DNA from: a bacterium
GTDB taxonomy: Bacteria > Ratteibacteria > UBA8468 > B48-G9 > JAFGKM01
DNA length: 64,000 bases
NCBI GenBank assembly: GCA_026414725.1
Contig: JAOAIL010000006.1
Location: forward strand, 390-64,389
Direction: 5' to 3'
How positions within the stretch are numbered: position 1 is the stretch's first letter; the number at the start of each line of letters is the position of its first letter. Shown here piece by piece: positions 29,412-63,325 of the stretch. The notes beneath the pieces are model-generated. The model had not been told where the DNA came from. It was given only the letters and a program-made list of their open reading frames with translations, and made no database searches. Made by a program: the position numbers and the translations under genes.

Positions 29412-29470
29412 GGGGGATAATAAAGGTCTCACCCTCACCCTGTCCCTCTCCCCTCAAGGGAGAGGGAAAC
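29412..29470. repeat. Single hairpin-a repeat unit upstream of the tRNA pair
   Basis: GGTCTCACCCTCACCCTGTCCCTCTCCCCTCAAGGGAGAGGG. Confidence 0.8.
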
Positions 29471-29484
29471 TAATTTATAATTTT

Positions 29485-29558
29485 GCGCCCATAGTTCAAC
29501 TGGATAGAACGTCGGGTTGCGGACCCGAAAGTTGCTGGTTCAAATCCGGCTGGGCGCA
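29485..29558 (+). tRNA. tRNA-Arg; anticodon reads GCG in my hand fold
   Basis: Cloverleaf: acceptor GCGCCCA/TGGGCGC, D-arm GTTC..GAAC, anticodon stem TCGGG/CCCGA with loop TTGCGGA, T-arm GCTGG-TTCAAAT-CCGGC. Confidence 0.65.
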
Positions 29559-29560
29559 CA

Positions 29561-29636
29561 CGGGGCGTGGCTCAGCCTGGTTAAGAGCGCTTGGTTCGGG
29601 ACCAAGAGGTCGGCGGTTCAAATCCGCCCGCCCCGA
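29561..29636 (+). tRNA. tRNA-Pro (anticodon CGG)
   Basis: C1:G72 acceptor, anticodon loop TTCGGGA, T-loop TTCAAAT. 2 nt after tRNA-Arg. Confidence 0.7.
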
Positions 29637-52359: not shown

Positions 52360-52455
52360 TCCTCCCCATACGAGGGGGGAGGAAACAGGTGGGGGTGGGA
52401 AGTGAAAGAAGGTCTCACCCCCACCCTATACCTCTCCTCTCAAGGGCGAGGGATA
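52360..52455. repeat. Composite hairpin repeat between pstS and arsC
   Basis: TCCTCCCCATACGAGGGGGGGAGG ... GGTCTCACCCCCACCC ... CTCTCCTCTCAAGGGCGAGGG. Confidence 0.8.
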
Positions 52456-55423: not shown

Positions 55424-55655
55424 CTCCTACCCATATGAGGGGGAGAGACCTAAATTACCTTCTCCCTCGGGGGGAGAAGGTAAGGATGAGGGATAAAGTT
55501 TAGCAAAGGTCTCACCCTCACCCTGCCCCTCTCCCCTCAAGGGAGAGGGAAAACAGTTCCTCCCCATATGAGGGGGGAGGATATAGGTGGGGGTAGAGAG
55601 TAAAAGTAAAGTTCTCACCCTCCCCTTAATCCCCTCCCCTCAAGGGAGAGGGATA
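55424..55655. repeat. Tandem pair of composite hairpin repeats between pstB and phoU
   Basis: Hairpins b (CCCATATGAGGGGGAG), c (ACCTTCTCCCTCGGGGGGAGAAGGT) and a (CCCTCTCCCCTCAAGGGAGAGGG), twice. Confidence 0.85.
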
Positions 55656-55673
55656 AAACATAAGGAGAGAAAA

Positions 55674-56327
55674 ATGATAGAACAAGAGATACAGCGGTTA
55701 AAAGAAAGTATCATTGCTTATGCATCTTTTGTAGCGAGAATGATAGAAGAAAGTATTACAGGACTGCTTGAAAAAGATGAAAAAATATTGAAAAAACTTA
55801 TAGAGGAAGAAGAAACAAAAGCAAACCATACAGAGATAGAGATTGAAGAAATATGTATTGAGGCAATTGCGCGGTATGAACCGAAAGCAAAGAATTTAAG
55901 AACCGTCCTTATGATAATGAAGATTAACAACGACCTTGAAAGAATAGGTGATGAAGCAGTTAATATTGCAGAAGCATCCCTTTTTCTTATAAAAAAACCA
56001 GAGGTAAAAAAACTTATAGATATTCCTCGTATGGCAGATTTGAGTGTAAGGATGTTAAAAGATAGTATCCAGTCGTTTGTAACAGATAATTCTATGCTTG
56101 CCCGTGAAATATGCACAAGAGATGATGTAGTGGATAATTTAAGAGACCAGGTAATCAGAGAACTTTTAACCTATATGATAACAGACCCTGCAACTATAGA
56201 AAGGGCATTACAACTTATGAGGGTTGCACGCTCACTTGAACGGGTGGCAGACCTTTCAACAAACTTCTGTGAAGATGTGGTATTTATGGTTGAAGGGAAA
56301 AATATCAAACACCACGCAGAAGAATAA
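55674..56327 (+). CDS. phoU: Phosphate transport system regulator PhoU
   Basis: Two PhoU repeats. Start moved to the internal Met (MIEQE) because the upstream part of the ORF translates repeat DNA. Confidence 0.85.
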   Translation: MIEQEIQRLKESIIAYASFVARMIEESITGLLEKDEKILKKLIEEEETKANHTEIEIEEICIEAIARYEPKAKNLRTVLMIMKINNDLERIGDEAVNIAEASLFLIKKPEVKKLIDIPRMADLSVRMLKDSIQSFVTDNSMLAREICTRDDVVDNLRDQVIRELLTYMITDPATIERALQLMRVARSLERVADLSTNFCEDVVFMVEGKNIKHHAEE

Positions 56328-56350: not shown

Positions 56351-56378
56351 TTGACAAAATTTTGTATATGGGTATAAT
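56351..56378 (+). promoter_or_regulatory. Consensus sigma70 promoter (TTGACA, 16 nt spacer, TATAAT)
   Basis: Perfect hexamers about 15 nt upstream of the riboswitch. Confidence 0.6.
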
Positions 56379-56394
56379 ATCACAAAATTGGAGA

Positions 56395-56570
56395 TAATAT
56401 CTCAGAGTGCCCGAGAGGGCTTAATAGGGAAGTGTCGCACTCACCAAGGTGAGGAGACGACTACGCTCCCGGCGCTGTAGGGCTGACGAAATTCCAAAAG
56501 CCACTGTCTGAAAAGACGGGAAGGTGGAAGAGTAGAATGAAGCCCAAGTCAGAAGACCTGCTCTGAGGAA
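56395..56570 (+). promoter_or_regulatory. Cobalamin (AdoCbl) riboswitch aptamer
   Basis: Blocks CTTAATAGGGAAG, GCCACTG...GACGGGAAGGTGG and B12-box-like AAGCCCAAGTCAGAAGACCTGC, in the same order as the E. coli btuB leader. Closing helix CTCAGAG/CTCTGAG. Confidence 0.7.
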
Positions 56571-56637
56571 TGGCGCAGCTTTTTCCTGCGGAGTACAGGA
56601 AAAAGGGTTTTTGTATTTTAGGCGAAGAAAACAGGGT

Positions 56638-56676
56638 GCAGCCCGCCATATATTTTGGCGGGCTTTTTTATTTCTC
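56638..56676 (+). terminator. Intrinsic terminator (riboswitch expression platform)
   Basis: GCCCGCCA-loop-TGGCGGGC followed by TTTTTTATTTCT. Confidence 0.7.
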
Positions 56677-56682
56677 AAACAA

Positions 56683-56920
56683 ATCCTCCCCATATAAGAG
56701 GGAGAGACATAAATTACCTTATCCCTATGGGGGAGAAGGTTAAGAGGGGGAAAGTATAGTGAAGGTCTCACCCTCACCCTGTCCCTCTCCCCTCAAGGGA
56801 GAGGAAAGAAAGTCCTCCCCATATGAGGGGGGAGGAATTAGGTGGGGGTGGAGAGTGTAAGCAAAGGTTTCACCCTCACCCTGTCCCTCTCCCCTCTAAG
56901 GGAGAGGGAAGGGGAGAGGG
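56683..56920. repeat. Tandem pair of composite hairpin repeats between the riboswitch terminator and the RNase HII-like gene
   Basis: Same b-c-a hairpin order. 56815-56875 is nearly identical to 57828-57888. Confidence 0.85.
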
Positions 56921-56935
56921 ATAATAAGGGATGCT

Positions 56936-57808
56936 ATGCCAGAGAAAAAAAGGATACTCGGGATAGATGAAAATGGACTTGGACCGCTTATGGGTCCTCT
57001 CGTCATTACAGGAGTCCTGTTAAGGTATGGAGGAAAAGACGTTTGGTTTGATGGTATAAGTGATAGCAAGGAATTTTTTTCAAGAAATATAGACAGGTTC
57101 TCACAATTAGAAGATACGGTTTTATCTCTTTTTTATCTTCTTGAAGGTAGAACACCTTCATCTCCAGTAGAAATACTTGAAAATTTCTGTGTAAAATATG
57201 ATTGTCTTTCCGGATTGAATATCTGCACCCGTAATATTCCGGATAGGTTTATATGGTCGGAAGGTAAAAAATGTGAAGAGTTGTCTGGATGGATGGGAAA
57301 GAATGGAATAGAGATAGAAAAGATACAATCAATTGCTCTATGTCCCAAGAGAATCAACAATTTTATAGAAAAGGGAGACCATAAATTCCTGCTTAATCTT
57401 TCTGCATTCTGCGATATTATAAAGAACCTCCCTGATAAAAATATGCTCTCTGTATATGCAGGCAGGGTTGGAGGATTAAAATTTTACAAAAAATATCTAA
57501 CTTATTACCTTTATGACTATCAATGTGAAACTATTGAAGAGAAAGAAGATGTCTCCTTATACCGGATGGAAGGAGATAATGAAACATTCACAATGGGCTT
57601 TTACACAGATGTAGAGAAGAAATCCTTTCCTGCTGCAATTGCATCAATTATAGGGAAATATATTAGAGAGTTATTTATGGCAGGTATACGGAAAACTCTC
57701 GGGATATCAGAAGATATCTCCGGCTATCATGACAGGAGAACAAAAAAATTTGTCCCTTCCATCTCCCCTGAAAGGTTTCCTTCAGATTGTATCTTCCGCT
57801 CAAAATAG
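56936..57808 (+). CDS. Divergent RNase HII-like protein with a large Cys-containing insertion
   Basis: RNase H2 motifs GIDENGLGPLMGP (GIDEAGRGP), GISDSKEF (DSK), and AAIASIIGKYIRE (ASIxAKxxRD, with E in place of D). 290 aa against about 200 for canonical RnhB. Confidence 0.55.
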   Translation: MPEKKRILGIDENGLGPLMGPLVITGVLLRYGGKDVWFDGISDSKEFFSRNIDRFSQLEDTVLSLFYLLEGRTPSSPVEILENFCVKYDCLSGLNICTRNIPDRFIWSEGKKCEELSGWMGKNGIEIEKIQSIALCPKRINNFIEKGDHKFLLNLSAFCDIIKNLPDKNMLSVYAGRVGGLKFYKKYLTYYLYDYQCETIEEKEDVSLYRMEGDNETFTMGFYTDVEKKSFPAAIASIIGKYIRELFMAGIRKTLGISEDISGYHDRRTKKFVPSISPERFPSDCIFRSK

Positions 57809-57819
57809 TATAAAGAGAA

Positions 57820-57930
57820 ATCCTCCCCATATGAGGGGGGAGGAATTAGGTGGGGGTGGAGAGTGTAAGCAAAGGATTCACCCTCACCCATCCCCTCTCC
57901 CCTCAAGGGAGAGGGATGGGGAAAGGGGAT
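57820..57930. repeat. Composite hairpin repeat
   Basis: TCCTCCCCATATGAGGGGGGAGG ... GGTGGGGGTGGAGAGTGTAAGCAAAGG ... CCCTCTCCCCTCAAGGGAGAGGG. Confidence 0.85.
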
Positions 57931-57976
57931 ACAATTTAAGTAAACTTTCAAATTTTATCTTATTATATATGATGAG

Positions 57977-58005
57977 TTGACAAAAATATAGATAGGTATT
58001 AAAAT
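57977..58005 (+). promoter_or_regulatory. Sigma70-type promoter (TTGACA, 17 nt spacer, TAAAAT), with RBS AAGGAGG ahead of the ferredoxin gene
   Basis: Consensus hexamers. Confidence 0.5.
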
Positions 58006-58049
58006 TTTGCGAAAATTAATTTTATTTCTACAAGTACAAGGAGGTCTGG

Positions 58050-58238
58050 ATGAAAGTGAGAGTTGATGAGTCACTCTGTACAGGGTGTGGTTTATGTGTA
58101 GATATTTGCCCTGAGGTATTTGAGATGCCTGAGGCGGTCTCTATCGTAAAATCCCCTGTGGTCTCAGGAGACCTTGCTGACAAGGTCAAGGAGGCAGCAG
58201 AGAGTTGCCCGGTAGAAGCGATTATCATTGAAGAATAA
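58050..58238 (+). CDS. fdx: Single-cluster 4Fe-4S ferredoxin
   Basis: CTGCGLCVDICP ... CP motif. 62 aa. Confidence 0.85.
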   Translation: MKVRVDESLCTGCGLCVDICPEVFEMPEAVSIVKSPVVSGDLADKVKEAAESCPVEAIIIEE

Positions 58239-61936: not shown

Positions 61937-62275
61937 CCTACCCATATGAGGGGAGATACCTGAATTACCTTCTCCCTATGGGGGGGAGAAGGTTAAGGAT
62001 GAGGGGGAAAAGTGTAGCAGAGGTCTCACCCTCACCCTGCCCCTCTCCCCTCTAAGGGAGAGGGGAAAAGAAGAAAATCCTCCCCATATGAGGGGGGAGG
62101 GTGCTGGTGCGACGAGTAAGGAGCAACGTATAGCACAGATGGCGAGATGGTGAGCCCGTTGACTGAAGCCCGTCAGGGCAAGAACAGGTGGGGGTGAAGA
62201 GTATAGAAAAGGTCTCACCCTCCCCTCTGAGAGAGGGGAAACTTAACAGAACCTATCTCCTCAAGGGAGAGGAAA
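61937..62275. repeat. Composite hairpin repeat cluster with the 95-nt module (62099-62200)
   Basis: b-c-a unit, then hairpin b fused to the module, then two more degenerate hairpins. Confidence 0.85.
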
Positions 62276-63081: not shown

Positions 63082-63325
63082 ACCCTCTCCCTTGAGTGGA
63101 GAGGTTCTATTAATTCTCCTCTCCCTTAGAGGGGAGGGGATTAAGGGGAGGGTGAGACCTCCGATGTACTTTTCCCCCTCATCCTTAACCTTCTCCCCCA
63201 TAGGGAGAAGGTATTTTAGGTATCCCCCTCATATGGGGAGGATTTCTTATTTACCCTCTCCCTTGAGGGGAGAGGGTTAGGGTGAGGATGAATACCTGTT
63301 TTAATCTTCATCCTCACCCCTTAAA
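63082..63325. repeat. Composite hairpin repeat cluster in reverse orientation, plus a perfect 13-bp inverted repeat
   Basis: CCCTCTCCCTTGAGGGGAGAGGG twice, CCTTCTCCCCCATAGGGAGAAGG, GGGTGAGACC; GGGTGAGGATGAA...TTCATCCTCACCC. Confidence 0.85.

Follow-up and report, generated by a model that had tools for sequence, protein, structure and literature searches.

The window analysed here is a stretch of 64,000 nucleotides (nt) from a metagenome-assembled genome (MAG) of a bacterium of the Ratteibacteria (contig JAOAIL010000006.1), and the element in question is a cobalamin (vitamin B12) riboswitch leader at positions 56351-56676 of its + strand. The leader lies between phoU and the gene of a divergent RNase HII-like protein, from which it is separated by a spacer full of repeats. 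Upstream of it the genes follow one another in the order pstS, pstC, pstA, pstB, phoU; phoU itself (55673-56327, + strand; Pfam PhoU, 1.4e-39) ends the pstSCAB-phoU cluster and is the upstream neighbour conserved in relatives. Its listed open reading frame (ORF) begins with a GTG at 55587, inside a repeat, and the ATG at 55673 is the start that the relatives have in common. Two traits of this leader are unusual: its orphaned state and an antiterminator that appears to be split around a hairpin resembling P13. The orphaned state was probably produced by a rearrangement at repeats, which would have parted an otherwise normal, transcription-terminating B12 riboswitch from its operon.

The first-pass annotation of this DNA had proposed a stand-alone cobalamin riboswitch with a perfect sigma70 promoter and an intrinsic terminator. 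The promoter was confirmed: a sigma-70-type site with a 12/12 match occupies 56351-56378 of the + strand (TTGACA at 56351-56356, a 16-nt spacer, TATAAT at 56373-56378), it was the top site of a 3-kb scan, and TTGACA and GGTATAAT were invariant in 6 of 6 aligned phoU-linked leaders. The covariance-model search that had been recommended gave a match of 94.8 bits to RF00174 at 56388-56579 of the + strand (gathering score 31.5 bits, E = 2.5e-22), which runs over the full model, from 1 to 189 of 189, and RF00174 was the sole non-tRNA Rfam family matched in the window. The conserved cobalamin blocks were all found where they had been placed and in the right order, aligned to the RF00174 consensus: CTTAATAGGGAAG, which contains GGGAAG, at 56420-56432, the GCCACTG...GACGGGAAGGTGG arm (GCCACUG...GGGAAGG in the RNA) at 56500-56527, and the B12 box AAGCCCAAGTCAGAAGACCTGC (RNA AAGCCCAAGUCAGAAGACCUGC) at 56540-56561. 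The CTCAGAG/CTCTGAG helix that had been recognized as closing the element corresponds to P1, formed by 56400-56407 (TCTCAGAG; RNA UCUCAGAG) and 56561-56568 (CTCTGAG(G); RNA CUCUGAG(G)); the pairing of UCUCAGAG with CUCUGAGG also fits the consensus. Loop L5, UCCCG, is located at 56467-56471. Judged by its sequence, the segment 56388-56579 is a genuine and intact cobalamin riboswitch of the common long type (RF00174, clan CL00101), and cobalamin would be its ligand by homology to the known behaviour of the family. Its Rfam score was higher than those of four phoU-adjacent relatives (53-86 bits).

The relatives were found by a PhoU search with one genome per species, which gave 12 Ratteibacteria/Omnitrophota genomes (PhoU 69-88% identical). 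RF00174 was present directly after phoU in 4 of the 12, and a fifth has the first part of the riboswitch at a contig end. In the alignment of these phoU-linked relatives, the promoter, the aptamer, the P13-like hairpin and the strong terminator were all conserved. A few tens of nt at most separate the terminator of L010 and L014 from a DUF1559/prepilin-like gene, behind which lie btuF-, btuC- and btuD-like genes (Pfam N_methyl with SBP_bac_10 (DUF1559), Peripla_BP_2, FecCD and ABC_tran). A second set was obtained with a pattern specific for the aptamer lineage, which retrieved 30 metagenome loci; 20 were scanned with Rfam and 19 of these matched RF00174. L074, which gave no Rfam match, was discarded as a chance match to the pattern. 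With both sets combined, a B12 gene was found after the platform, at about 10-135 nt, in 30 of 30 informative loci, which include near-duplicates and of which roughly 24 are independent. It was a DUF1559-like gene with btuF(CD) at 23 loci, a TonB-dependent receptor at 5 and metE at 2, while 4 loci were contig ends and uninformative. The copy in the window was the only one of the lineage without a B12-related gene downstream. From its conservation, the terminator of the relatives is best described as the riboswitch's own OFF switch, conserved and regulated. The stand-alone character proposed for the leader was therefore retained only in part: it has its own promoter and no B12 gene follows it in the window, but its terminator is a regulated part of the platform, beyond which an operon begins 10-135 nt further on in the relatives.

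The terminator described in the first-pass annotation as a GC-hairpin with a U-run was found at 56640-56676 of the + strand. Its stem AGCCCGCCA/UGGCGGGCU (56640-56664) has 9 pairs, 7 of them G-C, with a 7-nt loop, and is followed by TTTTTTATTT (RNA tail UUUUUUAUUU). In our terminator scan this site was T2; T1, at 56579-56605 of the + strand (stem CUUUUUCCUG/CAGGAAAAAG, loop CGGAGUA), is a hairpin that was absent from the earlier account. It sits directly after the aptamer and is conserved in the lineage, with compensatory changes (CCUG/CAGG to CCCG/CGGG; alignment columns 60-71 have UA 8, CG 6 and UG 5), and a U-run on its 3' side is restricted to a subset. Considering that the U-run is found only in this subgroup, we regard 56579-56605 as the equivalent of P13 and not as a conserved terminator. 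An arrangement with T1 as the regulated terminator and T2 as the end of the transcription unit was rejected, since the U-run of T1 is confined to the subset and T2 is conserved directly before the operon. A further helix could form at 56590-56619, where the 3' half of the P13-like hairpin is able to pair with the U-rich sequence after the hairpin (GGAGUACAGGAA/UUUUUGUAUUUU, 12 pairs, many of them G-U); it may represent a third platform conformer of the U-run subgroup.

Across the lineage the platform follows the order P1 3' strand, RYGG, hairpin with a GCGG-type loop, GGGY, CAGGGUGCA and terminator, the latter with the form RCCCGCC(RY) ... GGCGGGY followed by a U-run. The 3' arm of the terminator is reproduced by RYGG(C) plus GGGY, split around the P13-like hairpin. 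In the window the first of these strands (a) is AUGGCG, directly 3' of P1 (56570-56575, + strand), which is complementary to CGCCAU (56644-56649), the 3' end of the terminator 5' arm; the second (c) is GGC, the GGGY element of the relatives (56621-56623, + strand), complementary to GCC (56641-56643), the 5' end of the same arm.

Covariation was tested on a 20-sequence alignment of the lineage platform. Strand a and the terminator arm changed in concert (AUGG/CCAU, GUGG/CCAC, GCGG/CCGC). Between strand a and the CCRY end of the terminator 5' arm (columns 26-124) there were AU 11, GC 6, GU 1 and other 2, and between GGGY and the R position of that arm (columns 97-116) CG 12, UA 5, UG 2 and other 1. 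The terminator was 94.9% paired, with GC 11, AU 6 and GU 3 at its outermost variable pair (columns 116-141), so that column 116 covaries with both of its partners, the terminator 3' arm and the upstream GGGY. Column 124 gave with its terminator partner only UG 8, CG 4, UA 2 and other 5, which is worse than with the element after P1. The two antiterminator helices were 84.0% and 92.5% paired, the higher value being that of helix c. The register was also specific, with 82-86% paired at 0 and 37-59% when the partners were slid by 1-3 columns. The covariation score and paired-cell fraction of the antiterminator were reached by 0 of 500 shuffles, a statistic that overstates the support because the structures tested were drawn from the same sequences, many of them closely related. 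Covariation supports an antiterminator split around the P13-like hairpin, and we conclude that the platform would adopt two mutually exclusive folds, a three-way-junction antiterminator or the terminator. To our knowledge, a split antiterminator that flanks a P13 hairpin has not been described before, although no dedicated literature search was made.

A mechanism can be proposed in which the near-consensus promoter drives a leader composed of the aptamer, the P13-like hairpin and the strong terminator. When B12 is absent, AUGGCG (56570-56575) and GGC (56621-56623) would pair with the CGCCAU and GCC of the terminator 5' arm, which would produce the three-way-junction antiterminator with the P13-like hairpin between its helices, and transcription would continue. 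In solved cobalamin riboswitches, ligand binding stabilises P1 and the L5-L13 kissing loop. When B12 is bound, P1 and the presumed kissing loop would keep the hairpin, together with the segments flanking it, tied to the aptamer, the terminator arm would be freed, the terminator would form and transcription would stop near 56670. This direction of the switch is taken from what is known of the family, and B12-dependent termination would be the expected logic for an importer operon. In the relatives the leader would control a B12 ATP-binding cassette (ABC) importer operon with a DUF1559/prepilin-like gene plus btuF, btuC and btuD. The L13-like loop of the window, CGGAGUA, offers 3 possible pairs to L5 (CGG with the CCG of UCCCG), and relatives with the loop CGGGAUAA offer 5; in both counts L5 was fixed by the search pattern.

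The loop CGGAGUA, as compared to CGGGAUAA, was examined as a mark of decay and rejected, since functional members have CGGCAGA, CGGAAGA or CGGUCGA and its energetics are typical. With forced folds, the energy gap between antiterminator and terminator was 8.8 kcal/mol in the window versus 1.0-17.3 kcal/mol in relatives that control operons. Considering the score, the promoter, the loop and the energy gap, all of which are typical or better, the copy in the window gives no sign of decay at the level of its sequence. Coding potential over the riboswitch was also discarded: a 57-amino acid (aa) ORF at 56570-56743 and the minus-strand ORFs have no Pfam match, the frame of the 57-aa ORF is broken by 1-nt indels with respect to the relatives, and its ATG is the conserved antiterminator element.

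By comparison with the RF00174 leaders of B12 uptake genes (btuB, btuFCD), the element in the window shares the full-length model match, the B12 box, the multi-helix aptamer closed by P1 and a 3' hairpin positioned like P13, to which the sister genomes add the terminator and B12 transporter genes. It differs from them in its antiterminator, formed by two short strands between which the P13-like hairpin lies, and in that those leaders have downstream a gene for B12 transport, for B12 synthesis or for a B12-independent isozyme, whereas no B12 gene follows in the window. A downstream B12 gene is a contextual hallmark of RF00174 and not a structural requirement.

The nucleotide similarity of the window to L010, L013 and L014 extends from pstB over phoU and the entire riboswitch as far as 56672-56676, where the terminator U-run ends. 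The repeats begin at 56681, just past this point. Where the relatives have a leader of 10-135 nt and the btu operon, the window has a spacer of 259 nt (56677-56935, + strand), in agreement with the approximately 260 bp of repeats that had been noted before the next ORF. This spacer consists throughout of GC-rich hairpin repeats resembling repetitive extragenic palindromic (REP) elements or miniature inverted-repeat transposable elements (families D1-D3, inverted repeats I3-I4). Its fold had -126.8 kcal/mol (z = -5.2). Two core motifs of the spacer occurred 5 and 9 times in the window, always intergenic, versus 0 in shuffles, and its repeats have copies at no fewer than 9 other intergenic sites of the window. 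In the + strand of the spacer, from the terminator to the ORF, the 3-kb scan gave no promoter-like and no terminator-like site.

A search of the 64-kb window returned no homolog of BtuF, BtuC or DUF1559. In the same MAG a BtuF homolog (MCX8082363.1, 81% identical to the BtuF of L010) was found on a 78.7-kb contig. The accession numbers of this protein and of MCX8082492.1 in the window differ by 129, the BtuF having the lower one, which indicates that both come from the same submission; the other proteins of the window are numbered ...454 to ...495, in window order. Taking into account that this BtuF is on another contig of the MAG, the importer, or at least BtuF, exists in the genome, but not behind the riboswitch of the window.

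These observations are best accounted for, on balance, by a rearrangement with its breakpoint at the REP-like repeats just past the terminator, which would have removed the operon from the locus. The separation is probably recent, since the riboswitch has no sign of decay. It had been suggested that the riboswitch was uncoupled from its target by repeat insertion. The uncoupling itself agrees with the B12 gene that follows in 30 of 30 relatives and not here, but a simple insertion does not describe the locus, because the target is absent from the 64 kb and the similarity ends at the terminator.

The gene that now follows (56936-57808, + strand; 290 aa, MCX8082492.1) matches Pfam PF01351 at residues 8-54, with 36.2 bits versus a threshold of 25.8, over profile positions 1-48 of 199 only. 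The NCBIfam cut-offs for RNase HII (TIGR00729 and PRK00015, 123-285 bits) were missed, with 32 bits or less. At least 60 MAG proteins of about 290 aa, of Ratteibacteria/Omnitrophota type, form its family, in which the DE and DSK motifs are invariant and the C-terminal GKYIRE/SGY block is kept; no invariant Asp was seen in the middle of the proteins of this family. Only the N- and C-terminal parts match archaeal RNase HII in PDB, the central region being replaced. On these matches we regard ORF 56936-57808 as the gene of a divergent RNase HII-like protein and not as a B12 gene. Its homologs are found elsewhere after a TauE-family gene and before argS, or next to exbD/tonB, and the usual place of the gene is the last of an operon of flavodoxin-like, unknown and TauE genes that adjoins argS. 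The copy in the window is outside this TauE-RNH-argS setting and has copies of the composite repeat on both sides: the second copy of the 114-nt composite repeat (57818-57931, + strand, family D1) lies 3' of the gene and is 85% identical to 56810-56923, with an exact 55-mer in common with 56813-56867. An empty TauE/argS site was not found elsewhere in the 64-kb window. Beyond the gene, we observed a 62-aa ORF for a single-cluster 4Fe-4S ferredoxin in the 57977-58238 region (Pfam Fer4_13, 9e-15), with its own promoter at 57977-58005 (11/12 match). This ORF is apparently unannotated in GenBank, where MCX8082492 and MCX8082493 have nothing between them, and in L006 a ferredoxin homolog of 61 aa is called beside the same YkuD gene.

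It is here that an assembly chimera has to be considered, in which the true genome would have the riboswitch, some repeats and then the btu genes that are now on the 78.7-kb contig. The junction consists solely of repeats with many copies in the genome, the exact 55-mer stands on both sides of the RNase HII-like gene, and this gene is outside the neighbourhood it has in relatives. By accession arithmetic, and if the contigs are consecutive, no more than about 3-8 proteins would separate the BtuF of the MAG from the beginning of its contig, and no DUF1559 ortholog of the MAG was detected among the best 120 DUF1559 matches, as if the gene had been cut at a contig end. However, since exact repeats do not exceed 43 nt across 56677-56812, at least 136 nt of repeat-derived sequence without a btu leader are firmly joined to the riboswitch. 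A chimera would need misjoins both 5' and 3' of the RNase HII-like gene, a repeat of 55 nt is short enough to be spanned by typical reads, and in the relative L006 the RNase HII-like gene lies no more than 5 kb from the same ferredoxin-YkuD pair. We consider a chimera unlikely.

Given that the spacer has no promoter or terminator in the + strand, read-through at low B12 could reach the RNase HII-like gene, and its control by the riboswitch had been offered as an alternative in the first-pass annotation. This gene may be B12-repressed, though such control would most likely be a side effect of the rearrangement rather than adaptive. A genuine co-option, in which the riboswitch is kept since it usefully makes this gene, and perhaps genes beyond it, B12-repressible, would explain why the promoter, aptamer and switch are perfect or undecayed and would agree with the spacer, where no other start or stop of transcription was detected. 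Moreover, in relatives the gene is distal in its operon, 4-64 nt after the TauE-family gene, and as a promoter-less member it would need a new promoter after a move. On the other side, the arrangement is found in one genome only, no homolog locus joins the RNase HII-like family with a cobalamin riboswitch, an RNase HII-type nuclease has no connection to B12 that is known or would be plausible, and 259 nt of highly structured untranslated spacer would be a poor operon leader. The RF00174 scan of five homolog loci in other genomes gave no match, and the RNase HII-like family was rejected as a B12-regulated family. Co-option appears to us improbable, and the control of this gene in the window is probably incidental.

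The leader could also have become a regulatory RNA in trans. The S-adenosylmethionine (SAM) riboswitches SreA and SreB of Listeria also act in trans; they have cis targets behind them, and trans targets have been identified. For a SAM-I riboswitch/small RNA of Desulfovibrio (bioRxiv 10.1101/803072), the persistence of the terminated leader as a discrete small RNA is conceivable for the window too; it stands in front of its cis target and its trans targets were identified, and nothing alike is visible in the window. EutX of Enterococcus faecalis and Rli55 of Listeria monocytogenes are noncoding RNAs gated by adenosylcobalamin riboswitches, in which B12 sets a short or a long RNA (PMC5821096). 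The leader in the window is superficially similar in layout, in that a strong promoter of its own and a terminator are present and no cognate coding gene follows, and B12 would select in it either a short, terminated RNA or a longer read-through one. In this case the terminated leader of roughly 285 nt, or its read-through form, would be a small RNA or sponge like EutX/Rli55. However, a scan of 56560-56945 for two A..G.. hexaloop hairpins separated by at most 25 nt, the dual hexaloop site of ANTAR type, gave none, and there are no eut genes in the neighbourhood. The layout is not conserved either: the promoter-aptamer-terminator unit is an ordinary cis leader with a B12 gene in 30 of 30 informative relatives, no conserved stand-alone copy exists elsewhere, and the read-through sequence is generic repeat DNA found genome-wide. 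A role in trans is thus very improbable. The term "orphan riboswitch" is used in the literature for riboswitches whose ligand is unknown, not for those whose target gene is absent.

Taken together, some new use of the stranded riboswitch, be it a B12-repressible RNase HII-like nuclease through read-through of the spacer or a free B12-sensing RNA of about 285 nt, seems doubtful, and we favour a normal riboswitch orphaned by rearrangement. Several points weigh against this preference, besides the caution already expressed on the shuffle statistics. The perfect promoter and the undecayed switch would fit a retained function, with the new downstream gene or in trans, equally well. One MAG contig only has the riboswitch joined to the RNase HII-like gene, and no second assembly with this junction was found. 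The BtuF gene of the 78.7-kb contig may have its own copy of the riboswitch or sit at an assembly break. The L5-L13 kissing loop of the leader is putative and comes from knowledge of the family, L5 being invariant by the search pattern.

Some further observations concern the riboswitch of the relatives and its surroundings. L013 (5270-5390) and L018 (4310-4428) have a GGCG/AAGG-rich insertion of about 100 nt (alignment columns about 535-655), placed in a peripheral part of the aptamer, between the P6 extension and the B12 box; because of it their Rfam scores were only 53-55 bits. In L013 an extra ORF of 87 aa also precedes the riboswitch promoter, on the downstream side of phoU. Synteny in the clade breaks after phoU, as in 7 of the 12 relatives this region has unrelated genes and no riboswitch (L011, L012, L015 and L021 among them): L011 has a LacI-type regulator and a DUF1559 paralog, and L012 a small unknown gene and dnaE. 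The repeat family, with a G+C content of about 52% versus 35.5% for the genome, occupies many of the spaces between genes and gives rise to spurious ORFs of the "...SPLRGEGQGEGE..." type. Its sites in the window are 8730, 29423-29465, 41421, 52360-52383, 55512-55581, 56681-56925, 57818-57931, 62026-62101 and 63265-63291; copies are also found within the btu operon of L010 and in L008 and L015. Two adjacent tRNA genes (29485-29636, + strand, 68.6 and 65.7 bits) have the repeat copy 29423-29465 upstream.

As the riboswitch itself is a textbook one, the practical value of these results lies in correct annotation. An appropriate label for the stretch 56351-56676 is cobalamin riboswitch leader, and the RNase HII-like gene should not be assigned a B12 role by the "guilt by association" that is standard for riboswitch-linked genes. 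Two by-products are perhaps more useful. One is the antiterminator split around the P13 hairpin; the other is the first gene of the btu operons at 23 loci (for example L010:4683-5423, L014:6172-6870, L071:423-1109 and L097:3482-4186), whose product of roughly 240 aa has a prepilin N-terminal methylation motif and DUF1559 (SBP_bac_10). DUF1559 is a very large family of unknown function. A literature search found no paper naming both DUF1559 and cobalamin, and for this reason the DUF1559 gene that heads the btuFCD operons is perhaps the more useful lead. Its position suggests that one DUF1559/pseudopilin-like protein may take part in B12 capture or uptake in Ratteibacteria/Omnitrophota. Regarding the leader of the window, a new use, if true, would capture in nature the rewiring of a riboswitch to another target through repeat-mediated rearrangement. 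If the junction is true, the locus would be a clean natural case of a functional-looking riboswitch parted from its operon by a repeat-associated rearrangement, and it would bear on the gain and loss of riboswitch targets.

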